Counted from the first letter of the stretch, positions 1 to 19,421 are shown. The stretch: DNA of 20,000 bases from an uncultured virus (IMG/VR IMGVR_UViG_3300026185_000029) (IMGVR_UViG_3300026185_000029); one strand, 5' to 3'. A program made the numbers and translations. The notes: a model not told the origin generated them from the sequence alone.

Positions 1-1
1 A

Positions 2-274
2 GATTATATCGAAGCACCTTCTAAGGATGAACTAAGACGCATTCTTAGCTTTATTGAAGAGAAGGGAGCTACTGGTTGGGATGAATTATTAGATGCTGGT
101 TTTGAATATCAGCATTTAGTCTGGGTGTATAACTCTTATATCATTGAGACTATCAGAGCTATGGATCCCACTATTGTCATAAGAAAAGGTATTGGAGATC
201 TAGACGAGGTAGTAGAAGAGTACTACGATAGTATCGTAGAAAGGATTTCGAAAGAGTTTAAAGAATACTCTTAG
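2..274 (+). CDS. 3' end of a hypothetical protein (5'-truncated by window edge)
   Basis: Frame 2 is open from base 2 (DYIEAPSKDELRRILSF...ISKEFKEYS) to TAG at 272-274. Not in the ORF track. Confidence 0.75.
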   Translation, partial: DYIEAPSKDELRRILSFIEEKGATGWDELLDAGFEYQHLVWVYNSYIIETIRAMDPTIVIRKGIGDLDEVVEEYYDSIVERISKEFKEYS

Positions 275-276
275 TT

Positions 277-334
277 AATAGTAGGTATCGATGTTACTTA
301 GTTATTAGTAGTTAAGAAATATCAGCTACCTATT
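277..334 (+). ncRNA. Candidate small structured RNA or hairpin
   Basis: TAGGTA(282-287)/TACCTA(327-332) and GATGTT(290-295)/AATATC(318-323) form a two-stem hairpin right after the upstream stop codon. Confidence 0.3.
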
Positions 335-369
335 CCTGTTAACTGAGCAGGAAACATAAAAGGTATATT

Positions 370-436
370 AAGAAAGCTAAAAGGAGTTCCTATACTTTTA
401 AGATTTAAAACTTAAAACTTACTCCTCAGCTTTCTT
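370..436 (+). ncRNA. Structured RNA motif A, copy 1
   Basis: Outer stem AAGAAAGCT/AGCTTTCTT, AAA opposite a single C, inner stem AGGAGT/ACTCCT, loop starting TCCTA and ending ACTT. Confidence 0.7.
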
Positions 437-465
437 GTTTTTCATGTTTTTGTTAAAGTTCAATC

Positions 466-501
466 ACTATTGAGCCTATGTATTTATATAGGCTCAATAG
501 T
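466..501 (+). repeat. 16-bp inverted repeat (hairpin) just upstream of the tRNA
   Basis: ACTATTGAGCCTATGT-ATTT-ATATAGGCTCAATAGT; one G.U pair in + sense. Confidence 0.8.
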
Positions 502-505
502 TTAT

Positions 506-578
506 CCCCTAGTAGCTCAGTGGTTAGAGCGCCCAACTCATAATTGGGATGTCGAGTGTTCAATTCACTCCTGGGGGA
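506..578 (+). tRNA. tRNA with CAT anticodon, probably tRNA-Ile2 (lysidine type); elongator Met not excluded
   Basis: Acceptor CCCCTAG/CTGGGGG; D-arm GCTC-AGTGGTTA-GAGC; anticodon arm CCCAA-CTCATAA-TTGGG; T-arm GAGTG-TTCAATT-CACTC; discriminator A578; no encoded CCA. Has C4:G69 and lacks the initiator G29-G31:C39-C41 pairs. Confidence 0.95.
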
Positions 579-657
579 CTTTCAATTACTCGAATGGAGA
601 TTCTGTTCTTATCAATCTATCAAGTCCCCAATCTTTATTAAGGAAATTTTAACTAAA

Positions 658-1056
658 ATGGAAGTCAGTCAAATGAATGATATTGAATTATTAAAAGCTT
701 ATACTGCAGAGCGTGCTTGTGGAGATATTCATGGACGAGGTTCTTTTAGTGTAAGGTACGAAACTGAGTTATTAGAAGAAATAATCTCTCGTGGATTAGG
801 AAACAAAACTATTTGGTGCGTTCTTAATAAAGAAGCGACTGGCACGATAACCTATTTGCAGAGTGATATAGAAACAGAGAGGGTTTATTCTAAAGGTACT
901 TACGTACAAGTAGAGTTACGTGACCCTAAAATCTGTCTTGATGAGGACGGGGATGGTTTCATAAATTTTAAGAAAGAGGACTTAGAAGAAGTGTTAGTTG
1001 ATATTGACGATCCCCCTTCCGATTGGAATGGGGAGACTGCTCTGTTTCAAGGCTAA
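658..1056 (+). CDS. Hypothetical acidic protein
   Basis: The ORF-track start (544) lies inside the tRNA. ATG at 658, preceded by AAGGA, is the more plausible start (MEVSQMNDIELL...). Confidence 0.7.
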   Translation: MEVSQMNDIELLKAYTAERACGDIHGRGSFSVRYETELLEEIISRGLGNKTIWCVLNKEATGTITYLQSDIETERVYSKGTYVQVELRDPKICLDEDGDGFINFKKEDLEEVLVDIDDPPSDWNGETALFQG

Positions 1057-1073
1057 ATTCTAAAGTTATTACT

Positions 1074-1137
1074 GCATAGAAGCTAAAAGGAGTTCCTATA
1101 CTTTTAAGATTTAAAACTTACTCCTCAGCTTCTTTGT
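1074..1137 (+). ncRNA. Structured RNA motif A, copy 2
   Basis: Core nearly identical to copy 1 (lacks one 7-nt TAAAACT repeat). Outer stem AGAAGCT/AGCTTCT differs from copy 1 but still pairs. Confidence 0.7.
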
Positions 1138-1163
1138 GAATACCTAATCTTTGTTGTTTATTT

Positions 1164-1202
1164 ATCAAGTCTATATGAGATTAATTTTTATATAGACTTG
1201 AT
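1164..1202 (+). repeat. 17-bp inverted repeat (hairpin)
   Basis: ATCAAGTCTATATGAGA-TTAAT-TTTTATATAGACTTGAT; two G.U pairs in + sense. Confidence 0.8.
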
Positions 1203-1217
1203 TTGTTATTACTACTT

Positions 1218-1448
1218 ATGCCCAATTACCAAGACATTAATCTTATATACGCTGAGACCGATATATCTTATTCTCAATTTATTATCGATACAGTAGAAGA
1301 AGTTTATCTAGATATAAAAGATTGGAATAGAGATGCCCTCCTTAGTAGGATATATTATCTTAATAATGTTTTAGAGATAATGGTGCCAGGAAAGGATAAG
1401 CAATTACTTATTCGTCTTATATCCGCATTAGAACCTCAAAAGAATTAA
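1218..1448 (+). CDS. Hypothetical protein
   Basis: ORF 1203..1448; ATG at 1218 (MPNYQDIN...) preferred over TTG at 1203. Confidence 0.6.
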   Translation: MPNYQDINLIYAETDISYSQFIIDTVEEVYLDIKDWNRDALLSRIYYLNNVLEIMVPGKDKQLLIRLISALEPQKN

Positions 1449-1485
1449 TGGAGATGTCGAATCTTCAATTCACTCCTGGAGGACT
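1446..1485 (+). pseudogene. Degenerate copy of the tRNA 3' half
   Basis: 35/40 identical to 541-580 (anticodon loop to past the discriminator). Two of the changes break the T-stem. Confidence 0.8.
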
Positions 1486-1495
1486 AAAAGTTTAG

Positions 1496-1792
1496 TTGAA
1501 TATATTAAAGATTATGGATAGTCAAACAGATTTTACCATTGAGAGAAATGATGGACTTATAGTACTTTTTGTAAATAGTGATCTACCTCCTCATGAAATA
1601 ATTCCTCTTGATGCTTATATCTACAAGGGTGGGGATACGGTTCTTAGGTTATGTGAGGTTGTATATCTTCAAGAAGGGAAAATAAAACATAAAGTATTGA
1701 GGCTTATCCCTTTTAATATTAAGCCAGGGGCACATTCAAATATTAAACTTGTTTGTGATAGTCAAAAACCGTTATTTCAATTTATCCAGTAA
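1496..1792 (+). CDS. Hypothetical protein
   Basis: 98-aa ORF. TTG start downstream of GGAGG (1478-1482); alternative ATG at 1514. Confidence 0.6.
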   Translation: MNILKIMDSQTDFTIERNDGLIVLFVNSDLPPHEIIPLDAYIYKGGDTVLRLCEVVYLQEGKIKHKVLRLIPFNIKPGAHSNIKLVCDSQKPLFQFIQ

Positions 1793-1808
1793 ATACATTT
1801 GCTAAGGA

Positions 1809-1857
1809 AGGTCTCTAACAGCACTCTAATTCTCATTGAATATATAAATTGAGGTCT
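1809..1857 (+). ncRNA. Candidate motif B (stem-ACAGC), copy 1
   Basis: AGGTCTC/GAGGTCT stem (two G.U pairs) followed directly by TAACAGCA; intergenic. Confidence 0.35.
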
Positions 1858-1915
1858 ATTTAAACGTAGTTATCAATTACTTATCTTATCAATAGATTTT
1901 GGGTCTGTATCTTTA

Positions 1916-3877
1916 TTAAGATAAATGGGCCCCTACTAACTTGATACTTCTTCCTAATCTGGGGATGCAATATTCATCTACTGCCTTTTGCATCTCCTCT
2001 ACTACATTGTCTTCTAAGGCTTTTATGGTTAACCCATCATGTTGCCATAAGATCGGTACATACGAGTGATGGGTCTTAATTATCATATAGGAGATTATAG
2101 ATACTTCTATAGATTGCAGGATGCCCGCTATTACTGTTAACATATTCCCTTCATCCTTTTTCATAACACCAGTCTTCTTATCTCTTCCTAGATTACGGAA
2201 CTTACGGGCGACAATCTGTTCCCCTGTAGGTAAGGTGATACGTTTCCCATCAAACTCCTTAGTTAACCATCTGAATAAACTTCTTACTTCTCTATAGAAC
2301 GGACTTGATATAAATACTTTCACAATTGCTTCATATTCCTCCTTGGAGAGAACTGAATCAGGATGGTGGTTGTTATATGTATTGACCGCTTTTTGATACG
2401 CTTTCGTACCTCCTCCTAAGAATGTTGCATGATGCATCGCTTTAATTAAACTTTTATGGAACTTGACTCCCGCTTCCTTATATAGCTCTTCATATGCAGA
2501 CCATAAGGATCCTTTAGAAAGATGAGCCTCTAGACTGGGTAGCTTGTCACCCCATAAGGCTAGGGCAATTTGAGCATGACAATTCTCTAAATCGACATCC
2601 ATGAACCCTAGCCCTTCCATCGCATGTAACCTCATCTCTTTACGACAATAGAATAAGTTATCTACTCCTTGTCCATATACTCTAGGACTGACTTTACTAA
2701 GGGTCTTATAAAGGAAAGGTAAAGCTCCTTTGCTATTCATAACAGAGAGTTGACGAGAATCTAAATCGTCAGAAGGAACATAGCTTAAGAGATTTAAGCC
2801 TAAGGCTTCATTGAAGGTGGATAGGTAAGACGCATGATCGGCGGAGAGGATTAAGGAGGCTTGATGGCGCAAGGCAGAAGGACTTAAGGTGGTGGGGCCT
2901 ATAGGGGAAGGGTGAGTAGTAGAGGATTCATAGTTGGAATCAGTGGATAAGGTTTGGGATTGGGTATTAGGAGTATTATTAGTGGTATTGGTCTTACCCA
3001 TATCACTAATATCCTTATTCATATCCATCTCCTCATCTCCTATAGTTCCGTCTTCTTGTTCTATGCCAAATCCCCTTACTGTATAGTCCTTTATCTTATG
3101 ACCTTCTTTAATCAACTTACCCACCAGCATGTTGAATGCTTTCTCTCTCCTTTCTGGTTGTATACCCGGTATAAACTTCCTAATTGCATCTCTTAGATCC
3201 TGTTGAGTTATGCTTACATCCGTTCTGCGTTTAATATCATTAACCACTTCTACGGCTCTTTTCTGGTCTTTTAATGCCTGATAGGAAGTCGCTTCTAGAT
3301 TTGCTTCTAACTGGCAGTTCTCTTGAAGTGTTGGGTTGTTAGGATAAAAGTTCTTTATCTTGACTTTAACGATGAAAGTTTCATCAATCTCGTCATATAA
3401 AGTAAAGATATTAGTGGTTATAATCTTATAGATAGCATCTGCAATGTAGCGACTCAAACCTTTTGTTTTCCTGACTTTAGCTTCTGCTGCTATATTTCTC
3501 TTATAGTTTGGCTTACTAATTTCGGCTAATACACCTTGTCCTTTAAGGTCTTGTAGGAATTGAGTAGATCTAAACTTACTCCCACTATGCAAAGTCTTTC
3601 CTTCTGATATCTTATAAGCTAATTCTGCTGGCATTATAGACCCACCATTTCTATCACTAAATGTGCTAATATTATACTTAAGAGCATCTGATTTAGATAA
3701 ACCTTTTTGATTCCACATTATATTAAGGAGAGGGAAGTGAGTAGTATAACCAGCAACAGCTTGTGAACGCTCTTTATAAGGTTTAGTTTTAGGAACTATA
3801 TAACCATTATGAATTTCTCTTTTTATAATAGGAGTCTTAAAAGATTTATCGTTAGTATGTTCTGTTCTGATTTTCAT
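1916..3877 (-). CDS. Divergent superfamily-A nucleic acid polymerase (TV-Pol-like) with unknown N-terminal region
   Basis: C-terminal part has PRVYG...RKEMR, motif A DVDLENCHAQI, motif B KAMHHATFLGGG, LQSIEVSII and motif C LWQHDGL in the expected order. ATG at 3877 or TTG at 3889. Confidence 0.7.
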   Translation of the reverse strand: MKIRTEHTNDKSFKTPIIKREIHNGYIVPKTKPYKERSQAVAGYTTHFPLLNIMWNQKGLSKSDALKYNISTFSDRNGGSIMPAELAYKISEGKTLHSGSKFRSTQFLQDLKGQGVLAEISKPNYKRNIAAEAKVRKTKGLSRYIADAIYKIITTNIFTLYDEIDETFIVKVKIKNFYPNNPTLQENCQLEANLEATSYQALKDQKRAVEVVNDIKRRTDVSITQQDLRDAIRKFIPGIQPERREKAFNMLVGKLIKEGHKIKDYTVRGFGIEQEDGTIGDEEMDMNKDISDMGKTNTTNNTPNTQSQTLSTDSNYESSTTHPSPIGPTTLSPSALRHQASLILSADHASYLSTFNEALGLNLLSYVPSDDLDSRQLSVMNSKGALPFLYKTLSKVSPRVYGQGVDNLFYCRKEMRLHAMEGLGFMDVDLENCHAQIALALWGDKLPSLEAHLSKGSLWSAYEELYKEAGVKFHKSLIKAMHHATFLGGGTKAYQKAVNTYNNHHPDSVLSKEEYEAIVKVFISSPFYREVRSLFRWLTKEFDGKRITLPTGEQIVARKFRNLGRDKKTGVMKKDEGNMLTVIAGILQSIEVSIISYMIIKTHHSYVPILWQHDGLTIKALEDNVVEEMQKAVDEYCIPRLGRSIKLVGAHLS

Positions 3878-4005
3878 ATTTAATGTCAATGAGAGATTGA
3901 TTTGTCTCTTTGATGTTTACACCCCTTATTTTAACAGATAATAGTCTGAAAAGAATAAGGGATTTTTCTTATAATTATTAAAGTTAACTAAAACAATTCA
4001 AATGA

Positions 4006-4341
4006 ATGATAACCCTCTTAAAATCCTTTTTAACTATATTAATAGCAGCAGTAATGGTGTTAGGGGAAGGGATAGGGAAAGAAGTATTAGGAGAGATTGA
4101 GACTCTTATCTTTAATATAGTGACAGAGGATAATCAACCTATACCATGCACTGCTGATAGAGGAGTTGATGGGCAAGTAAGAATGTATGTTTATCGACTA
4201 AATAATGAACAAGTAGAAAGGTTCATTGCTTGTGGCAATGAGATTGGAACATATCCAACGGTTCATTATAGTGATCTGAATCAACAACAGAAAGATTCAG
4301 TAAACTACCATATACTTCCACGTATATTTATAGAGAACTGA
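4006..4341 (+). CDS. Exported two-Cys protein, paralog 1
   Basis: Hydrophobic N-terminus; PIPC...GQV..YVY...C...YSDLNQQQKDSV shared with 8569..8886 and 9492..9800. Confidence 0.7.
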   Translation: MITLLKSFLTILIAAVMVLGEGIGKEVLGEIETLIFNIVTEDNQPIPCTADRGVDGQVRMYVYRLNNEQVERFIACGNEIGTYPTVHYSDLNQQQKDSVNYHILPRIFIEN

Positions 4342-4348
4342 GAAAAAG

Positions 4349-4378
4349 AAGTCGTATTTATTTACACAGATACGATTT
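4349..4378 (+). promoter_or_regulatory. Hairpin upstream of the 615-aa gene
   Basis: AAGTCGTATTT-ATTTACAC-AGATACGATTT; 11 bp with two G.U pairs. Confidence 0.4.
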
Positions 4379-4422
4379 AGAAAGTTTTTATTTATAATCA
4401 ATTATTTATTTATTTATTTACC

Positions 4423-4472
4423 TAGAAGGTAAAAGGAGTTCAATATGAATTTGCAATCACTTCTCACCTCTA
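4423..4472 (+). promoter_or_regulatory. Motif A copy 3, enclosing the SD and start codon of the 615-aa gene
   Basis: AGGT/ACCT outer stem, AAA opposite C4465, AGGAGT/ACTTCT inner stem. The SD (AGGAG) is paired and ATG 4445 lies in the loop. Confidence 0.6.
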
Positions 4473-6292
4473 ACAAAGAATTCACTAACGCCTGTTTAGC
4501 ATTATTTCAAGCATTACCTGAGCGAGTAGGTCAAGCGAAGCAAACTAAGATCTTACCTGAACAAGGATTAATCTTAGTATCTTCTAATATTGAATTATTA
4601 GAAGAATGGGTAAAAGAGAATGTTCTATCAGGTCATCAACTAAATAAAACCTTTCACAAGAGTTGGGGTTTAATTAAGGATAGTTCTAATGAAACATTAT
4701 TAGTTCAACAAATCCTTCATTACTTCTCCACTTACGGGCTTGAGTCTTTAGGATTAGAAGAACAGATTTGGATTCCTGCTGAGGAGTTAGAGATTCCTGA
4801 GCGATTAAAGTACCGAGTAATCAAAGATAGAGAAATAGAAGAAATCATTAACCGTTGTAAAGAGATGTTAGCTTCAGGCACTGCTCTTAAGGAATCTACA
4901 GTATTTAATATTGTAGAAGTACTTAAAGGATTAGAAGTTGACTTAGCCTCTTTAGAAGTTAACAATAAAGAAGCTCAGGTACTGGTAGTAGAAGCAACAG
5001 GTGATCTTCCTAATAAGGAGGATGAATTATTCCGTTACCTGTTCTATAAAGCTACTGGTGGTTTATTAATGGTTATTAAAAATAAGGCTTCCTATAGTCT
5101 TATTATTAATAATGGATATGAGTTACCAGAATTAACAGAGGAGCAGATCTTAGAGTTAGCTAAAGGATTTAACCGTCGTAAGCAATTATGGATGTCCTTC
5201 AAAAAAGCCAATAAGGGAAATATTAGTTTAGTCAATCGTATTGCGAAGAAGTCTAAAAAGGTCCATAGACCTATGCAGCCCGATGTGCTCAATACGTTAA
5301 CTAGTAAAAAATGGCCTATATCTCTTGTTGAAAAGGAAGCTAATAAGGCAGCTATTCCTCGATTAATCAAAGCCGTCAATGCTTTAAGATTCTATCAACG
5401 AGATGATCGTAATAGAGTCTATAGAGTGAGAAATGGTAAAGCCTTTACTAAAGAGCGGATTAGCAAGCAGCCCTCTTCATTAATGGCTTTATATGAAACA
5501 ACTCTACTCCAGGCATTAAAAGAAAAGCTTGGTATGAGAGTTGTTAAAGCGCCTAATAATATTTCTCTTAAGATCCCAAGTTCTGAAAAGAACTTTATGG
5601 GGCCCATTCCGTTTGGTAGTTCTTTAACTATCGAGATGGATAGGGGGAAGAAGCTATTAGTAGGTATTCATTGGGACTTTTACAACGGTGACTTAGATTT
5701 AAGGGCTGACTCCCGAAATCATTCAGTAGCTTGGAATAAGAGCTACAAGATAGATGAGAATGGTAACACTATTTATCATTCAGGAGATCTTGTTAGAGGA
5801 CCAGCTACAGAATGGCTATGCTTCACTCAAATCAATGAAGTCTTCAGACTTGATGTAAACGGCTATCATAATGCGGAGGAAGGGGCAGCCTTCAAGATGA
5901 TAGTTGGTCTAGTAGAGAAAGGGCCTATGCCCGATGATAAGGACCAAAATTACATTATCAATCCAGATGATGTTATTCTTGAGTTAGATGTAGAGCTCTT
6001 ATCAAAAGGGACTACTATTGGATTCATTAAGCCTTCCACTAATGATGAAGGACAAAGTTGTATGACTTTGACTTTAGGAAGTGGAGGAATGAATAACCAA
6101 GCAGTAGGAGGAGGTAAAGGTGATTTAGCAATTATTGCTGAGAAGGCAATGGTGAATAGTACCGTGGCTATGTTAGGTTTACCAGATATCTTTACGTTGA
6201 CCAATTCTGGTTCATCGGGAGAGGGTTATGTAGATTTATCAGAAGACCTGACAGCTGATAAGGTATTATCGCTAATCAGTGCTAATGGATAA
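4445..6292 (+). CDS. 615-aa protein: predicted helical (possibly Ro/TROVE-like) N-terminal region plus C-terminal TerD-like domain
   Basis: TerD-like motifs GIHW...DLDLRAD, HSGD, ATEW, VNGY. N-terminal block FHKSW...QQILHYFSTYG. Strong SD. The Ro-like assignment is an inference. Confidence 0.6.
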   Translation: MNLQSLLTSNKEFTNACLALFQALPERVGQAKQTKILPEQGLILVSSNIELLEEWVKENVLSGHQLNKTFHKSWGLIKDSSNETLLVQQILHYFSTYGLESLGLEEQIWIPAEELEIPERLKYRVIKDREIEEIINRCKEMLASGTALKESTVFNIVEVLKGLEVDLASLEVNNKEAQVLVVEATGDLPNKEDELFRYLFYKATGGLLMVIKNKASYSLIINNGYELPELTEEQILELAKGFNRRKQLWMSFKKANKGNISLVNRIAKKSKKVHRPMQPDVLNTLTSKKWPISLVEKEANKAAIPRLIKAVNALRFYQRDDRNRVYRVRNGKAFTKERISKQPSSLMALYETTLLQALKEKLGMRVVKAPNNISLKIPSSEKNFMGPIPFGSSLTIEMDRGKKLLVGIHWDFYNGDLDLRADSRNHSVAWNKSYKIDENGNTIYHSGDLVRGPATEWLCFTQINEVFRLDVNGYHNAEEGAAFKMIVGLVEKGPMPDDKDQNYIINPDDVILELDVELLSKGTTIGFIKPSTNDEGQSCMTLTLGSGGMNNQAVGGGKGDLAIIAEKAMVNSTVAMLGLPDIFTLTNSGSSGEGYVDLSEDLTADKVLSLISANG

Positions 6293-6295
6293 AAT

Positions 6296-6357
6296 ACAAA
6301 TAGGCAAAGGGAGTTCCTAATATTTTTATTGGAATAACTTACTCCCCGCCTATTTGT
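6296..6357 (+). ncRNA. Structured RNA motif A, copy 4
   Basis: ACAAATAGGC/GCCTATTTGT outer stem, AAA/C, GGGAGT/ACTCCC inner stem, TCCTA...ACTT; separated from the 615-aa stop codon by 3 nt. Confidence 0.7.
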
Positions 6358-6398
6358 TCTTAAAAGTTAAAAGGAAGATAATGAGAGTATAGATAAAA

Positions 6399-6465
6399 AG
6401 AGTATAGATAAAAAGAGTTCCTATTTATAAGAACAATAAATTACCTTACTCTTCATCTGTACTTT
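6399..6465 (+). ncRNA. Structured RNA motif A, copy 5
   Basis: AGAGTATAGAT/ATCTGTACTTT outer stem, AAA/C, AAGAGT/ACTCTT inner stem, TCCTA...CCTT; 15-nt tandem duplication AGAGTATAGATAAAA at 6384-6413. Confidence 0.65.
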
Positions 6466-6498
6466 AATACACTTATAAATCTTCCTAATAACTTCTAA

Positions 6499-6654
6499 GA
6501 GGGATAGAAAGTAAGAGGCAATTATTATTCTTAGGATCAATATAGAGAGTACAAAATCTACTCCCTGTAGATGTACTTTCATTTACATTGACCCGAATCA
6601 ATTTTGTCCATTTGAGAGATAATAATTATACTCTTACTATTCTTCCTATTCTTT
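6499..6654 (+). ncRNA. Candidate ~155-nt rod-like structured RNA
   Basis: Nested pairings AGTAAGAG/CTCTTACT, AATTATTAT/ATAATAATT, TCAAT/ATTGA, GAGAGTAC/GTACTTTC and ATCTAC/GTAGAT in an intergenic gap. Confidence 0.45.
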
Positions 6655-6672
6655 ATCTAACAAGTAAAATAA

Positions 6673-6864
6673 GTGAGTAAATTAAATATGAATACAGGTA
6701 CCGTACAACGAGTAAAAGATCTAGCTTATAAGAAAGGTCATAGGACTGGAGCTAAAAGTAAACTAGGAGAAGAAGCGAAGTGTCCTTACATTACTTCTTG
6801 GGTAAGCCTTAGATGGATGGATGGATACGAGGAAGGACAATATGAAGTTGCAGCTGCTAATTAA
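6673..6864 (+). CDS. Rmf/CrpP-fold (ribosome modulation factor-like) small protein
   Basis: AYKKGHRTG...CPY...WMDGYEEG matches the Rmf pattern AxxxGYxAG...CPY...WLxGWxE. Start GTG 6673 or ATG 6688. Confidence 0.6.
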   Translation: MSKLNMNTGTVQRVKDLAYKKGHRTGAKSKLGEEAKCPYITSWVSLRWMDGYEEGQYEVAAAN

Positions 6865-7042
6865 TCTCTTCAACCTTAAGGTAACAGGATTAGACGGAGA
6901 AGGTTTACCGTATGATCCTGAAGCTGATTTAGTAGACCTAGGGTATGGCGTATATCCTTTAGGAAAGATTAGGACTAACTTCAAAGTTAGGTTTATTCAT
7001 ACTCTATTGATCTTAGAGAGTAGATTTTTACGTCGAAAGTAG
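6842..7042 (+). CDS. Hypothetical protein
   Basis: ATG 6842 after GAGGAAGGA; short overlap with the previous gene. Confidence 0.5.
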   Translation: MKLQLLINLFNLKVTGLDGEGLPYDPEADLVDLGYGVYPLGKIRTNFKVRFIHTLLILESRFLRRK

Positions 7043-10272: not shown

Positions 10273-10785
10273 ATGAATAGAATTTCATCAATTCTTTTAA
10301 TAGGAATTTTAGCATCATGTTCTAATACTCCTAATCCTCAACCCCAACCTCAACCTCAACCAGGTCCAGTATTATCTGAGCTGTCTATAGAAACCCTCCC
10401 TGACTCCTGTAGAGTAATAGATGGTGATACTATAAGTTGTTTCTTAGATGGTCAACAAGAGTCTATTCGATTATGTGGAGTAGACGCATATGAAAGGACA
10501 CAAGAAGGGGGTGATGCAGCTACAGCAGCATTAGAAAGACATCTTAATAACTCTGGTATAACCTTCACAAGGGGAAATAGAGATAGATATGGTAGGATCA
10601 TATCTTCTTTATTCACTAAAGAAGGAGAGAGTATAAATGCTGCACTGGTAGAAGGAGGTCATGCCTTCATGTATACGACTTATGTGGGAGGATGTGCTGA
10701 TGAGCAGTTTATTAGAGAAGCACAATTGAACAATCCGGCCGTACCAGGTATTGAATTACCTTGGGATTATAGAAGGAATAGATAA
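10273..10785 (+). CDS. Lipoprotein thermonuclease (SNase family)
   Basis: Lipobox LASC, (PQ)n linker, and SNase motifs VIDGDT, IRLCGVDAYE, DRYGR, NAALVEGGHA, PWDYR. Confidence 0.9.
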   Translation: MNRISSILLIGILASCSNTPNPQPQPQPQPGPVLSELSIETLPDSCRVIDGDTISCFLDGQQESIRLCGVDAYERTQEGGDAATAALERHLNNSGITFTRGNRDRYGRIISSLFTKEGESINAALVEGGHAFMYTTYVGGCADEQFIREAQLNNPAVPGIELPWDYRRNR

Positions 10786-11017: not shown

Positions 11018-12007
11018 ATGAGTAGCATCAAAGCAGTTAGGCCAAAGATTTCGGTCCCACAATCTACAGTGGAATTATCAAGACAACGCCGATCTGTAAC
11101 CAGGGGAAAGTTGATGAAGATATTCCTAGACTCGCTAAGAGTGAGTCCAGGTTTAACGTTAAAGGTCATATTTTATATAAGGGACATTGAAGGCCGAGGA
11201 GAAAGGAGAATTTTTAATACGGCTTTTACCAGTTCATGGGGAGATCAAGAAGATAAAAGGGTGGAACTTCTTAATTCACAGATCTTCTGGGAATTAATAG
11301 TGAAATATAGTTCATGGAAAACAGTGCTTGATTTAGCATTACCAATGATGGAGAAAGTGCTAGTTGAGACAGAAGAAAAAGAAGAAGAATATAAATTAAA
11401 AGTTATAGAAACGTCTTCAGGTTTAAATATAAAGTTAAAGATAAAGATAAACGCTAATAAGGATAATGAGAAGGAGAAGGAGAAGGAGAAAGATAAAGAT
11501 AAGACAAACTTCAATTATCTTGTTTTATTGGAGCTTATAAAAGATACGTTAAGAAAAGATATGAGTTCAAGGAACCCATCTCTCTTAGCGAAATGGTTAC
11601 CGTCAGAATATAAAGCTCATGCTGTAGCATATCCTAATGCCTTTAAAGCGTTAGTGTCGTATATAAGCGGTCAGAGAGGAATAGCAATATATAGAAAGAC
11701 ATTGACTAGCTTAAGATCTAAGATAGGTATTGTAGAGCAAAAGATGTGTGCCAATGAGTGGGGCAAAATAAATTACGGTGATATACCCATGAATGCCCGT
11801 AAGAAATACAGACGTGCTCTCAAGAGACACGGAGTGAAACCTAGTAAACGGAGAAGTAAAAGTGAAAAGGTAGAGATAGGTAAAAAGAAAGAATCTAATA
11901 TACCAACAATAGCAACAGACGACGTTCTATCAATCAAAAGAGTGGTAGAGCATAATCCTCGATACACAGAGGTAGAAGAATTAGAAGCAATTCTACGCAA
12001 TAACTAA
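11018..12007 (+). CDS. DUF2828-family (Ro/TROVE-like) protein, N-terminal domain only
   Basis: FYIRDIEGRGERRIF, KYSSWK, LLAKWLPSE, YRKTLTSLR, VEQKMCANEWGKINY. No C-terminal vWA MIDAS (DxSxS) motif. SD GGAGG. Confidence 0.75.
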   Translation: MSSIKAVRPKISVPQSTVELSRQRRSVTRGKLMKIFLDSLRVSPGLTLKVIFYIRDIEGRGERRIFNTAFTSSWGDQEDKRVELLNSQIFWELIVKYSSWKTVLDLALPMMEKVLVETEEKEEEYKLKVIETSSGLNIKLKIKINANKDNEKEKEKEKDKDKTNFNYLVLLELIKDTLRKDMSSRNPSLLAKWLPSEYKAHAVAYPNAFKALVSYISGQRGIAIYRKTLTSLRSKIGIVEQKMCANEWGKINYGDIPMNARKKYRRALKRHGVKPSKRRSKSEKVEIGKKKESNIPTIATDDVLSIKRVVEHNPRYTEVEELEAILRNN

Positions 12008-12316: not shown

Positions 12317-12988
12317 ATGAAAATACTAATAGTGGGGGATACTCATGGAGATATTAAGCTTATATATGAAGCAATAGATTATGCTAAAGAAATGGGATGT
12401 AAAGAGATTTATCAAGTAGGGGACTTTGGGTTCTTTCCTAATCTTTATCCTGATTTCCTAGCTAATCTAAATTCTCCAATCCCCTTTTATTTTATTGATG
12501 GTAATCATGACGATCATTCAGTTCTAAAAAGGTATCGTCATGAAAATAGCCCTATAAGCTTAGAAGATATGGGATATGACTCTTATAACTTTTACTATAT
12601 TCCTAGAGGATATATGAAGCTTGTAGGTTCTTCTAATATAATGTTTATCGGAGGGGCTAACTCAACTGATAGACGTTATAGAAAAGAAGGGATAGATTGG
12701 TGGAGAGAAGAAACAATAGACTTCTCAGAATATTATAGATGTATAGGTAATGTAAGCTCTTGTAAAGTAGACATCATTCTGAGCCATGAAGGTATTAGAA
12801 GTGAGGTAATAGCTTATGAAGAGAAAGATAATTGTAGGGAAGCTATTGAGCAATTGGTAATGTTAGCCAAACCTAGCCTTTTGATACATGGACACCATCA
12901 TATTAGTTATATGACTAATATAAATGGAACGTGTGTTAAAGGTTTAGGATGTACTTCCAGATCTATGTACGAAGTATTAGTAGTTTAA
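12317..12988 (+). CDS. Calcineurin-like metallophosphoesterase
   Basis: Motifs GDTHG, GDFG, GNHD, SHE and HGHHH. Confidence 0.92.
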   Translation: MKILIVGDTHGDIKLIYEAIDYAKEMGCKEIYQVGDFGFFPNLYPDFLANLNSPIPFYFIDGNHDDHSVLKRYRHENSPISLEDMGYDSYNFYYIPRGYMKLVGSSNIMFIGGANSTDRRYRKEGIDWWREETIDFSEYYRCIGNVSSCKVDIILSHEGIRSEVIAYEEKDNCREAIEQLVMLAKPSLLIHGHHHISYMTNINGTCVKGLGCTSRSMYEVLVV

Positions 12989-13441: not shown

Positions 13442-13742
13442 GATGTAGTAAAACAAAGTAATGGAGCTAAGCAAAAGAGTGTATAAAGCAGAGAAGGAGA
13501 AAAGAAGAAAAGTATAAAAAGAAATAAGAAGAACCAGTTATTACTGATATTGATTCTTTATTCTTTGCTTTCTTCTTTCCTTTTAGATTCTTTCTATATC
13601 ATCATTAAATCATCATTAACTTAATAGAGAGAAAGAATTGATATAGGTAGAGAGTTTATAGACAAATAAGTAAAGTCTTAAAAGAGATACCGTCCTCCGT
13701 ATTCTCAATATCAGTAAGTAATTAACTGGGGAGGACTTTAAG

Positions 13743-18518: not shown

Positions 18519-19196
18519 TTGACTAATATTTATTTAGCCGTAAGTGGAGGTATTGATTCAATGTACCTTCTTCATTGTCTTGTCGAAAGAAAGGCAAATA
18601 TTAAAGTTATCAATTATCATTACGGAGATCCATATTCTGATCAAGTCGATAATTTATTAAGGGAGGTTTGTAATCAATATAAAGTACCTTTAATACTTAG
18701 TAGTGAGTTAGAAGGAATCCATAATAAGGATTGTAGTAATAACAATAAGGAAGCTAATTGGAGGGATAGTAGATATAAATTCTTTGCAAGAGTCTTAAAT
18801 AAAACGAATACAGCTTCTAATGAACGACCTGTATTGTTAGTAGCTCATCATGAAACAGATCAATTAGTTTCGTGGATAATGTCTAGACTGAAAAATAGTC
18901 GAAGATGTTTTATTCCTTTAATAGGGAATCATCAAGGTGTAAAGGTTGTAAGACCTCTATATCGAATGGCTAAAGAAGATATAAAAAGAGAGGTCATTCG
19001 TAAGAGTATTCCTTATTTAGAGGATCCTGAGAATAGTCATGGTGATAGAGCAGCTGTAGAGAAATTAATCCCAGCGCTCAAAGAAGCCATCTCACAAATG
19101 CAAGGAGCTTTCGCTAATCAATACGAAGATTGGTTAAATAGATATATCACTAGCTTAGACAAAGAAGACCAGGCTTTATTAGCTAGTTTAAGTTAG
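18519..19196 (+). CDS. tilS: tRNA(Ile)-lysidine synthase-like PP-loop enzyme, catalytic domain only
   Basis: AVSGGIDS PP-loop, EANWRDSRY, AHHETDQ, VRPL, YLEDPEN. TTG start after a purine-rich SD. Confidence 0.8.
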   Translation: MTNIYLAVSGGIDSMYLLHCLVERKANIKVINYHYGDPYSDQVDNLLREVCNQYKVPLILSSELEGIHNKDCSNNNKEANWRDSRYKFFARVLNKTNTASNERPVLLVAHHETDQLVSWIMSRLKNSRRCFIPLIGNHQGVKVVRPLYRMAKEDIKREVIRKSIPYLEDPENSHGDRAAVEKLIPALKEAISQMQGAFANQYEDWLNRYITSLDKEDQALLASLS

Positions 19197-19215
19197 AGTT
19201 GTAGAAATAAAGAAA

Positions 19216-19292
19216 GATAGATAGTACCATCCATGTATATAATTTATGAGACTTCTAGTTTTATCTTATATACATAGATGGTACTATCTATC
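19216..19292. repeat. 27-bp inverted repeat with one mismatch and a 23-nt spacer
   Basis: GATAGATAGTACCATCCATGTATATAA ... TTATATACATAGATGGTACTATCTATC. Confidence 0.85.
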
Positions 19293-19421
19293 GAATAGTG
19301 ATAGAAAGAGCAAGGAAGAAGGAAACAATTTGGTCAATATAAGATAACATCAAACCGTATTTAAGTTATCAACTTAAATATTGACCATCAATGTACTAAG
19401 TAAAAAGGCAGGAAGGAAACA

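Follow-up and report, generated by a model that had tools for sequence, protein, structure and literature searches.

The hairpins that surround a 615-aa gene in the 20,000-nt window analysed here, the whole stretch of DNA from an uncultured virus, probably (at a rough probability of 0.6) represent a hitherto undescribed family of small, structured RNAs from the sense strand, whose core is recognised by the 615-aa protein, the two forming a ribonucleoprotein for RNA or tRNA repair, surveillance or protection. The hairpins are structured as RNA, lie on the strand of the gene and are linked almost exclusively to one gene family, and their co-occurrence with this family in large phages and bacteria suggests an undescribed RNA-protein partnership. 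The original prediction of such a partnership is, overall, supported.

Four copies on the + strand of the window share one layout, in which an outer stem leads through an internal loop, with AAA facing one unpaired C, to a 6-bp inner stem closed by a loop with UCCUA at its start and CUU at its end. Copy 1 (370-436; 79.7 bits with R1, a covariance model built from the four window copies only, and 65.7 bits with the second-round model R2; fold z-score versus shuffles, -4.19) has a 9-bp outer stem, an AAA/C internal loop, an AGGAGU/ACUCCU inner stem and a 33-nt loop containing a 7-nt duplication. The core of copy 2 (1076-1135, with a stem extendable to 1074-1137; R1, 82.8 bits; R2, 66.3 bits; z = -3.32) is almost identical, and a tRNA-Met (CAU) gene (506-579, + strand; ARAGORN; Rfam tRNA, 68.1 bits) lies between these two copies, which flank it as predicted. 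Copy 3 (6296-6357; R1, 78.3 bits; R2, 72.2 bits, the top match of the R2 search; z = -6.52) begins 4 nt past the stop codon of the 615-aa gene (4445-6292, + strand, ATG at 4445) and combines a 10-bp outer stem with a GGGAGU/ACUCCC inner stem. Copy 4 (R1, 68.7 bits; R2, 57.6 bits; z = -4.23) has an inner stem of AAGAGU/ACUCUU and an outer stem with a single U·G pair; it had been placed at 6399-6465 and stands as a motif, with coordinates that we read as 6401-6463. A 15-nt tandem duplication starting near 6386, before copy 4, makes a second pairing register possible.

Of the five copies originally proposed, these four are confirmed as real, far beyond chance. In a window search with filters off they scored 68.7-82.8 bits with R1 and their reverse strands 9.6-24.5 bits, and the 6.5-20 kb part of the window held no further + strand R1 match below E = 0.1. 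Standard pairs fill 98.3% of the 60 pair cells in the four-copy alignment, and both sides change in 9 of 15 pairs, a level of pairing and covariation reached by 0 of 500 shuffles; covariation also holds in the larger alignments below. The fifth copy (4422-4473, + strand; R1, 22 bits, E = 0.002; z = -0.51) is doubtful and can be no more than a degenerate remnant: it does not contain the invariant UUCCU, is missing from the R2 matches at E <= 0.01, and spans the ribosome-binding site of the 615-aa gene (in its 5' half), the ATG and the first codons.

The copies do not behave as plain terminators, an outcome that would have counted against the original prediction. All four good copies are intergenic, each behind + strand genes, and a T-rich stretch comes after copy 1, as might be expected of ordinary intrinsic terminators or insulators that are kin merely by local duplication. 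However, a terminator scan of positions 1-7000 called none of the four, its sole site being another hairpin (1164-1202), and T-runs (at least 6 T in 8 nt) after the last unit of an array are rare (7/74 viral and 7/71 bacterial arrays). The arrays moreover sit upstream of genes, and phages and bacteria share the conserved unpaired bases, so that we consider the terminator explanation extremely unlikely.

The conserved core of the wider family comprises a GGC/GCC helix end, an A-W-A bulge facing one unpaired C, a 6-bp purine/pyrimidine helix whose pairs vary through compensatory changes, UUCCU and a variable apical loop. UUCCU is invariant in all 138 distinct rows, and the fourth position of the GGC-A-W-A-RR core is A in 135 of them; the outer stems, four inner-stem positions and the AU-rich apical loops vary. 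The inner helix is paired in 99.5%, 98.9% and 99.0% of cases in three larger alignments, with double-sided changes in 5, 5 and 4 of its 6 pairs, counts that lean towards structure because R2 and the alignments A7, A8 and A10 were fitted to the model. The ratio of G·U pairs to A·C mismatches is 18:1 for the inner helix and 28:2 for the proximal outer helix; at one pair, 64 of the 121 distinct bacterial rows have G·U. The excess in the inner helix points to a sense-strand RNA, in line with the + sense originally deduced from G·U pairs. The distal outer stem, about 76-84% paired, has no such excess (30 G·U vs 56 A·C). The motif had not been recognised as a named family, and a cmscan of the whole window against Rfam 15 (E <= 5) likewise found no family at any of the four copies, with only the tRNA above cut-off; the RNA family, with hundreds of instances, is absent from Rfam 15. 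Neither the RNA nor the protein is described in Rfam, Pfam, NCBIfam, PHROGs or the literature searched, the coverage of which leaves out Burroughs and Aravind 2016.

We found a close linkage between the motif and homologs of the 615-aa gene, as the original prediction anticipated. Among 64 viral loci with relatives of the gene, 44 held R1 matches (68 in total at E <= 0.005), all on the gene strand: 56 within 700 nt upstream, seven further upstream, five within 1 kb downstream and none inside the gene. With R2, 154 matches were detected in 59 of the 64 loci, again all co-directional with the gene (123 no more than 1 kb upstream, 16 at 1-2.6 kb upstream and 15 within 1 kb downstream), and five loci had no match; in bacteria, 211 R2 matches covered 80/80 loci kept, every one upstream and on the gene strand. 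Most matches form tight tandem arrays just 5' of the gene, with 1-7 units in viruses and, in bacteria, a last unit that stops about 10-20 nt before the start codon. Searches that started from the motif in ten whole genomes led back to the gene for 30 of 32 matches (first 150 candidates scored in 8 of the 10 genomes), comprising 16/16 in five phage genomes (178-504 kb) and 14/16 in five bacterial genomes (4-5.4 Mb). As a negative control, 100 viral loci sharing merely a 14-nt core yielded two matches at E <= 0.001, with 24-26 bits. The viral family members have no other conserved neighbour, the next commonest family occurring in 8 of 64 loci. tRNAs were present in 15 of 60 related viral loci scanned, and the module often lies in or beside tRNA arrays, with its units embedded in the same direction as the tRNAs.

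The strand of these matches also bears on whether the copies could be repeats that function as DNA, such as hairpins recognised in single-stranded form by a transposase or recombinase, with the protein acting on DNA. REP elements cluster around RAYT genes much as these hairpins cluster around one gene, and single-stranded DNA tolerates G·T wobble too. Nevertheless, all 154 + 211 R2 matches lie on the gene's strand, the units are co-directional within tRNA arrays and inside the tRNA-like RNA described below, the motif is not dispersed through genomes, and no nuclease or recombinase domain was recognised in the protein; the probability of this explanation is close to negligible.

Beside the module in Flavobacteriia is a tRNA-like RNA that carries a circularly permuted copy of the motif. 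Among the 80 bacterial loci, 48 have such a permuted copy immediately 5' of the array, and the strict permuted-motif pattern fits 26 of the 37 tRNA-like elements examined. The tRNA-like RNA of locus L227 scored 22 bits with the Rfam YrlA model (cut-off, 69 bits), and no SPFH gene was found among the ORFs scanned in this locus. In 53 of the 80 bacterial loci, RtcB was encoded co-directionally at a distance of up to 3 kb (46 upstream and 7 downstream of the gene), and RlaP is another neighbour. The RtcB link is phylogenetically narrow, occurring in 44/45 Chryseobacterium loci vs 9/35 other bacterial loci, in 1 of 64 viral loci and in none of five whole phage genomes. The neighbouring RtcB ligase, RlaP and tRNA arrays suggest a role in RNA or tRNA repair, surveillance or protection, parallel to that of Ro60 and Y RNAs.

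The position of the arrays raises the question of a purely cis-acting leader, in which the hairpins of the protein's own mRNA would autoregulate or attenuate its translation or transcription and would neither persist as stable free RNAs nor act in a separate ribonucleoprotein. Most R2 matches are indeed upstream and co-directional with the gene, the last unit lies right against the start codon, the degenerate copy of the window covers the ribosome-binding site and ATG, and locus L227 has a seven-T run between the last hairpin and the ATG. Given the 10-20 nt spacing in bacteria, the array doubles as the mRNA leader, and cis regulation alone is compatible with most loci. It does not fit the 15 viral matches downstream of the gene or the 16 lying 1-2.6 kb upstream, nor does it fit the window itself, where two intact copies follow the stop codon and copies 1 and 2 are 3.3-4 kb upstream, beyond the tRNA, several ORFs and an opposite-strand ORF. 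A single operator would suffice, yet arrays reach 7 units; a permuted copy occurs in the tRNA-like RNA; and T-runs after the last unit are rare. On balance we regard a leader function alone as unlikely, though deserving of serious consideration. The conserved unpaired A-W-A, C and UUCCU, in tandem units of a 5' leader, could likewise be read as ligand-sensing, riboswitch-like elements controlling the downstream gene. This reading, which we judge very unlikely, faces the same positional exceptions and the same permuted copy, the scarcity of T-runs leaves it no evident expression platform, and the association is with a single gene family, not a metabolic regulon. A ribonucleoprotein in which the 615-aa protein recognises the hairpin core remains the preferred reading.

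The protein family comprises 1208 clusters (50% identity) at E <= 1e-30, and the AF2 model of the 615-aa member has a pLDDT of 88 and a pTM of 0.86. Its C-terminal domain (about 395-569) adopts a TerD fold in this model (2qz7_B, Z 10.2, rmsd 2.8 A over 138 aligned residues; 2kxt, Z 8.6), within which D416, D418, G447, D448 and E456 are invariant in the family. The TerD domain originally assigned to the protein is therefore borne out by fold but not by Pfam, which returned no family at E <= 10, its TerD model included; PHROGs and NCBIfam likewise contain no family for the protein. The likeness to the TerD family of tellurite-resistance proteins lies in the C-terminal fold and its conserved acidic and glycine positions, whereas here the domain is fused to a 390-residue part without recognised relatives. 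This N-terminal domain (about 1-390) is predicted to be helical (pLDDT 84.3) and has no clear match to any solved structure, with no Foldseek hit at E <= 0.001. No ter operon context surrounds the gene, and linkage to structured RNAs is absent among the Ter-system contexts in the sections of PMC7824862 on which we draw.

In rsr-yrlBA-rtcBA operons, the tRNA-like RNA YrlA is found near RtcB, and Ro60/Y RNA systems also occur in phages. The module resembles these operons in its RtcB neighbour at the bacterial loci and in its presence in phages. As in Ro60/Y RNA systems, small structured RNAs are encoded co-directionally with the protein gene and no more than a few kb away; they combine a variable module with a conserved, asymmetrically bulged helix, and one RNA form has a tRNA-like domain. 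According to the relevant passages of PMC4201824, YrlA itself was found by looking for an ncRNA within about 4 kb on the strand of the protein gene. The same passages give the Ro-binding motif as GGUCCGA, or GNCGAAN0-1G in bacteria, and the core described here has A where that Y-RNA motif has G. It also differs from Y RNAs in its arrays of up to 7 units and in the circular permutation of the tRNA-like form, and the C-terminal domain of the protein is TerD, not the vWA of Ro60. No homology to TROVE/Ro60 was detected: Pfam gave no TROVE (PF05731) match at E <= 10, and hhalign of family alignment A1 against a Chryseobacterium TROVE protein returned a probability of 2.3%. When compared with the HEAT-repeat ring of Ro60, the N-terminal model aligned with Ro60 structures (1yvp, 9l5y, 2nvo) at Z 5.5-5.6 over 57-69 residues, ranking 23-30 among unrelated helical proteins. 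The Ro/Y-RNA-like reading proposed originally is thus retained in layout, RtcB context and the tRNA-like RNA as an analogy, since no TROVE signal points to homology.

Tandem stem-loops with variable palindromic stems, one adjoining protein gene and frequent occurrence in phages also recall TIGR-Tas, as described in the portions of PMC12045711 concerned with its arrays, in which the palindromic edges vary as well. The units could then be guide-like or specificity RNAs of an array-plus-effector system of the TIGR-Tas or CRISPR kind, whose variable outer stems, four inner-stem positions and apical loops choose targets; tandem arrays beside one large protein in phages would agree with this. In those portions of PMC12045711, however, Tas proteins have a Nop domain and the units contain two unpaired 8-12-nt spacers flanked by box C/D, whereas here the variable segments pair together and are not free spacers, the conserved elements are different, the loops are AU-rich and arrays have only 1-7 units. 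Neither a nuclease or recombinase domain nor a Nop domain was recognised by Pfam or fold matches, the latter being weak for Nop, and we give a guide function very little credence.

The sequencing runs listed as containing the window are all of DNA. For the favoured protein-RNA partnership, we infer transcription and processing into units, direct binding and a repair-related role. Tandem arrays, transcribed in the direction of the gene and in many cases as part of its leader, would yield the RNAs; the 615-aa protein encoded next to them would recognise the conserved hairpin core, probably through its N-terminal helical domain, so that RNAs and protein assemble into a ribonucleoprotein. The variable apical part may carry other functions, including, in Flavobacteriia, one whole tRNA-like body attached via circular permutation. 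RNA-repair scaffolds with cognate RNA modules (Rot/TROVE with Y RNAs; SPFH/Band-7 with a tRNA-like RNA) were reportedly described by Burroughs and Aravind in 2016, and the present module would be a third scaffold-RNA pair beside RtcB and RlaP. More tentatively, at somewhat short of even odds, the TerD-domain protein with its hairpin and tRNA-like RNAs may constitute an unrecognised class of ribonucleoprotein, a non-homologous counterpart of Ro60/Y RNA in Bacteroidota and many large phages. Its core would dock the protein, while swappable apical modules, the tRNA mimic included, would recruit substrates or enzymes such as RtcB for tRNA repair, protection or survey in phage-host conflict, with TerD perhaps sensing a metal or nucleotide signal.

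If the pairing is real, it would represent a second, independently evolved Ro60/Y-RNA design, in which a protein is paired with modular small RNAs that include a tRNA mimic, and would give a first way into the function of a large protein family without a Pfam, NCBIfam or PHROGs model. The circularly permuted form provides a clean natural experiment on the protein-binding core, and the system is testable in cultivable Flavobacteriia and in the cyanophages S-CRM01 and S-CBWM1. The finding also bears on why large phages carry tRNA arrays and on which accessory factors accompany them.

On reading the sequence, we recognized the hairpin architecture proposed in the original prediction in four copies on the + strand, at 370-436, 1076-1135 (with a stem extendable to 1074-1137), 6296-6357 and 6401-6463, hereafter copies 1-4. 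In each, an outer stem of 7-10 bp and a 6-bp inner stem are separated by AAA facing a single unpaired C, and the loop opens with UCCUA and closes with CUU; all four fold much better than their shuffles (z from -3.3 to -6.5). Standard pairs filled 98.3% of the 60 pair cells of the four-copy alignment, and both sides had changed at 9 of 15 pairs, which was matched by 0 of 500 shuffles. A covariance model built from these copies (R1), run with filters off, gave them 68.7-82.8 bits on the + strand, against 9.6-24.5 bits for the opposite strand, and found no further convincing copy in the whole 20 kb. Five copies had been claimed, but the fifth, at 4422-4473, did not stand: it folds with a z of -0.51, is without UUCCU, scores 22 bits with R1 (E = 0.002) and overlaps the ribosome-binding site and ATG of the gene for the 615-aa protein (4445-6292, +), and is possibly a relic rather than a motif member. 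The copies gave no match in Rfam 15 at E ≤ 5, so that the hairpin belongs to no family there; the prediction had not recognised the motif as a named family. A 15-nt unit is tandemly duplicated at ~6386-6415, just before and into copy 4, and therefore offers two possible registers for the outer stem of this copy, the upstream one being used in the minimum-energy fold.

We further searched for the motif around relatives of the 615-aa protein. While a locus search with the single protein returned zero viral loci, a 10-sequence alignment as query yielded 64, which were taken with 6 kb on each side. R1, a window-only model, gave 68 matches (E ≤ 0.005), every one in the orientation of the gene and spread over 44 of the 64 loci: 56 lay ≤ 700 nt upstream, 5 ≤ 1 kb downstream, 7 farther upstream and none within the gene. 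A second-round model built from these viral matches (R2) gave 154 matches (E ≤ 0.01) in 59 loci, and none at this threshold in L147, L150, L173, L175 and L182. As before, every match has the orientation of the gene; 123 are upstream by ≤ 1 kb, 16 by 1-2.6 kb, and 15 lie ≤ 1 kb downstream. The viral arrays comprise 1-7 units with a median gap of 8 nt. No second conserved gene was found around the viral genes, the next family occurring in 8 of 64 loci, and no other ORF of the window recurs among them. tRNAs were carried by 15 of the 60 viral loci scanned (five or more in 9), with units placed between tRNAs or directly after them; in S-CRM01, the gene sits within a tRNA array.

The motif also accompanies the gene in bacteria, where 175 relatives were found in one-genome-per-species contigs. 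The best 80 of these 175 were mostly from Flavobacteriia (45 Chryseobacterium loci, plus Tenacibaculum, Winogradskyella, Kordia and others) and Saprospiraceae, with a few others. R2 gave 211 matches (E ≤ 0.01) in these 80 loci, all upstream and on the gene strand, and the match table has at least one in every locus; a typical locus holds three units, the last ending 10-20 nt ahead of the start codon. Co-occurrence of motif and protein gene, expected under the original prediction, thus extends to 59/64 viral and 80/80 bacterial loci. At the scale of whole genomes, all 16 R2 matches (E ≤ 0.01) in five phage genomes that are complete or close to it (178-504 kb) adjoin the gene, as do 14 of 16 in five bacterial genomes (4-5.4 Mb), the other two being weak (28 bits); these counts come from the first 150 candidates scored in 8 of the 10 genomes. 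By comparison, in 100 control viral loci that merely contain the 14-nt core of the hairpin, R2 gave 2 weak matches at E ≤ 0.001, and this 14-mer, present in at least 117 loci, was discarded as a marker, being common and uninformative on its own. One 6.9-kb contig from a MAG labelled as archaeal (Thermoplasmata; L209) has the gene preceded by two units, which score 51.3 and 47 bits, and could be a virus or a mis-binned contig.

Both sets point to a conserved RNA structure. In alignments fitted to the covariance model, the inner helix was 98.9% paired among 138 distinct viral rows, with double changes at 5 of 6 pairs, and 99.0% paired among 121 distinct bacterial rows, with double changes at 4 of 6, so the covariation first noted in the window persists in larger samples; pairing fell to 37-55% in slid-register controls. 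The consensus runs outer stem, GGC, A-W-A, RRNRGU, UCCU-A-W, variable loop, ACYNYY, C, GCC, outer stem. All 138 viral rows have UUCCU without change, 132 have the bulged C, and the two bulge As are found in 135 and 129. The ratio of G·U to A·C is 18:1 for the inner helix and 28:2 for the proximal outer one; among the 121 bacterial rows, 64 have G·U at one particular outer pair. These biases indicate that the sense strand, as RNA, is the functional form, in agreement with the + sense structure previously read from G·U pairs. The distal outer stem is less regular (76-84% paired overall; A·C 56 vs G·U 30).

Such hairpins might be plain terminators, but a consensus terminator scan called none of the motif copies, and T-runs are rare after the last unit of an array (7/74 viral, 7/71 bacterial); the copies thus do not behave as plain terminators. 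The only site called in 1-7000 was 1164-1202, one of two simple strong hairpins (with 466-501) that lie ~30 nt past copies 2 and 1, respectively. With 1164-1202 being terminator-like, copies 1 and 2 would occupy the 3' ends of transcription units. A promoter reading of the loop, which contains TATACT in copies 1 and 2, was rejected because the -35 positions would fall within the variable outer stem and because promoter-like sites in the region show no excess over shuffles (20 vs 24.5).

Many of the bacterial loci also carry a second RNA. In 48 of the 80, ARAGORN placed immediately ahead of the array an 'intron-containing tRNA' whose anticodons were inconsistent. In L227, a Chryseobacterium sp. 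locus, this tRNA-like RNA scores 48.6 bits with the Rfam tRNA model and 22 bits with the YrlA model (cut-off 69), and a 44-nt insertion replaces its anticodon loop. The insertion is a circularly permuted form of the motif, in the order ACYNYY, C, GCY, a short cap loop, RGC, A-N-A, the complementary purine strand and UCCUAU. Of the 37 elements examined, 26 fit a strict pattern for this order and the remainder were similar by eye; the pattern found nothing in the 64 viral loci or the window. The permuted elements show compensatory changes between the two inner strands. It follows from the permuted order that the tRNA body is attached at the hairpin's apical loop, with a plain cap closing the outer stem. 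The two-dimensional module thus stays the same under different strand connectivity, as expected of a unit recognised in trans. This bears on the main rival explanation, that the arrays act purely in cis as a leader or operator. The geometry of the bacterial loci fits such a role; however, it accounts poorly for the downstream and distant copies, for the window itself, where two copies lie past the stop codon and the other two precede the gene by 3.3-4 kb, and for the permuted tRNA-like form. A cis-acting leader role and a protein-RNA module could also coexist.

The gene order in L227 is RtcB RNA ligase, tRNA-like RNA, three hairpins, the TerD-domain gene and RlaP (PF10127), the last described in a passage of PMC12776372 as an RNA-ligase-associated nucleotidyltransferase. 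In 53 of the 80 bacterial loci, an RtcB gene in the same orientation is found no more than 3 kb away (46 upstream, 7 downstream); these comprise 44 of 45 Chryseobacterium loci vs 9 of 35 others. The figures are 1 of 64 for the viral loci and 0 of 5 for whole phage genomes. The three array units of L227 (2808-2987) differ in inner-stem sequence, and the tRNA-like RNA has a fourth. Given the similar unit positions and scores in other Chryseobacterium loci, the units may be distinct paralogous RNAs, not redundant repeats. In seven Flavobacteriaceae loci (L189, L193, L199, L200, L207, L212 and L226), the module stands beside arrays of 7-20 tRNA genes, and some of them have two tandem tRNA-like RNAs. 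This setting resembles the phage layout, and these regions may be prophages or tRNA-array islands.

The named relatives of the 615-aa protein are only those of Synechococcus phages S-CRM01 and S-CBWM1 and gut phage Phass-1 (28-34% identity), and Pfam, PHROGs and NCBIfam hold no model for the family. A word-indexed search found 67 relatives, and an exhaustive profile search of 50%-identity clusters found 2831 (E ≤ 0.001), 1803 (1e-10) and 1208 (1e-30). The AlphaFold2 model, built with 43 homologs (pLDDT 88, pTM 0.86), bears out the predicted TerD domain: residues 395-569 adopt the TerD fold (2qz7_B, Z 10.2, rmsd 2.8 Å, 138 aligned; 2kxt, Z 8.6), and the Pfam TerD model gave no match. Sequence searches against the PDB found nothing, and the ESM Atlas returned unnamed viral clusters only, plus one automatically named 'TerD family'. 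Full-length Foldseek matches to clostridial neurotoxin entries were discarded as meaningless (TM ~0.1, rmsd ~30 Å). The N-terminal 390 residues, modelled separately (pLDDT 84.3), have no convincing structural relative, the top VIA score being Z 7.3 over ~60 residues, and gave nothing in Foldseek at E ≤ 0.001.

The original prediction had likened the system to Ro60 and its Y RNAs; homology of the protein to Ro60 was not detected. Three Ro60 entries scored Z 5.5-5.6 against the N-terminal model, at ranks 23-30 amid unrelated helical proteins, and aligning the family with a TROVE protein from a bacterium in hhalign gave a probability of 2.3%. A canonical TROVE gene was found in 0 of 5 phage genomes and 1 of 5 module-bearing bacterial genomes, a Chryseobacterium, where R2 found no match beside it. 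Taken together, these results make the 615-aa protein no detectable Ro60 homologue. In layout, the proposed module parallels that of Ro60 with YrlA/YrlB next to rtcB. YrlA was discovered, as a passage of PMC4201824 relates, through its same-strand proximity to the Ro60 gene, and a passage of a jumbo-phage review (PMC7824862) counts TROVE proteins, together with a tRNA-like partner, among the components of RNA-repair sets in phages. That review is also the only source found that names RtcB and TerD together, in unrelated passages. Compared with the Ro/Y pair, neither partner here is homologous by the tests run. Our literature search found no description of this system, and none of a TerD-domain phage protein with a noncoding RNA. 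Burroughs and Aravind 2016, which might mention the family, reportedly deals with RNA-repair systems in which Rot/TROVE and SPFH/Band-7 scaffolds have cognate RNAs.

The window, with many small + strand ORFs and a G+C content in the low thirties, looks like part of a large phage genome. The eight runs listed as containing this stretch are all DNA from soil metagenomes; megablast of 300-6600 against phages gave no match, and an exact 42-mer from copy 3 was not found in viral contigs. The sole long opposite-strand gene (1916-3889, 657 aa), without a family in Pfam or PHROGs, separates the upstream copies from the TerD-domain gene, which gives it the look of an insertion in the module. The 3' half of tRNA-Met (506-579) is repeated at 1449-1486. 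From ~1449 onward this copy is almost the same as 546-580; it overlaps the end of ORF 1218-1448 just ahead of ORF 1514-1792, and resembles a trace left by insertion or recombination at the tRNA. Two long AT-rich near-perfect hairpins (13481-13597 and 19213-19295) with sub-threshold Rfam microRNA-precursor matches are probably just long inverted repeats. A 329-aa ORF (11018-12007) matches DUF2828 (PF11443, E = 2.3e-11) and phrog_850 'RNA-binding protein', and has no sequence relative in the PDB. Also downstream of the module, a staphylococcal-nuclease homologue (10273-10785), a calcineurin-like metallophosphoesterase (12317-12988) and a PP-loop ATPase (18519-19196; PF01171, a family that includes tRNA-modifying enzymes) are loosely suggestive of RNA or tRNA transactions.

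The best reading of these data is that the hairpins and the TerD-domain protein form a protein-plus-cognate-RNA module, from which we infer that the RNA is expressed, that the units are processed and that the protein binds them. The neighbouring protein would dock on the conserved hairpin core, and the variable apical part would serve as effector or adaptor, in one form as a tRNA mimic. The resulting protein-RNA assembly may serve to repair, survey or protect RNAs or tRNAs.
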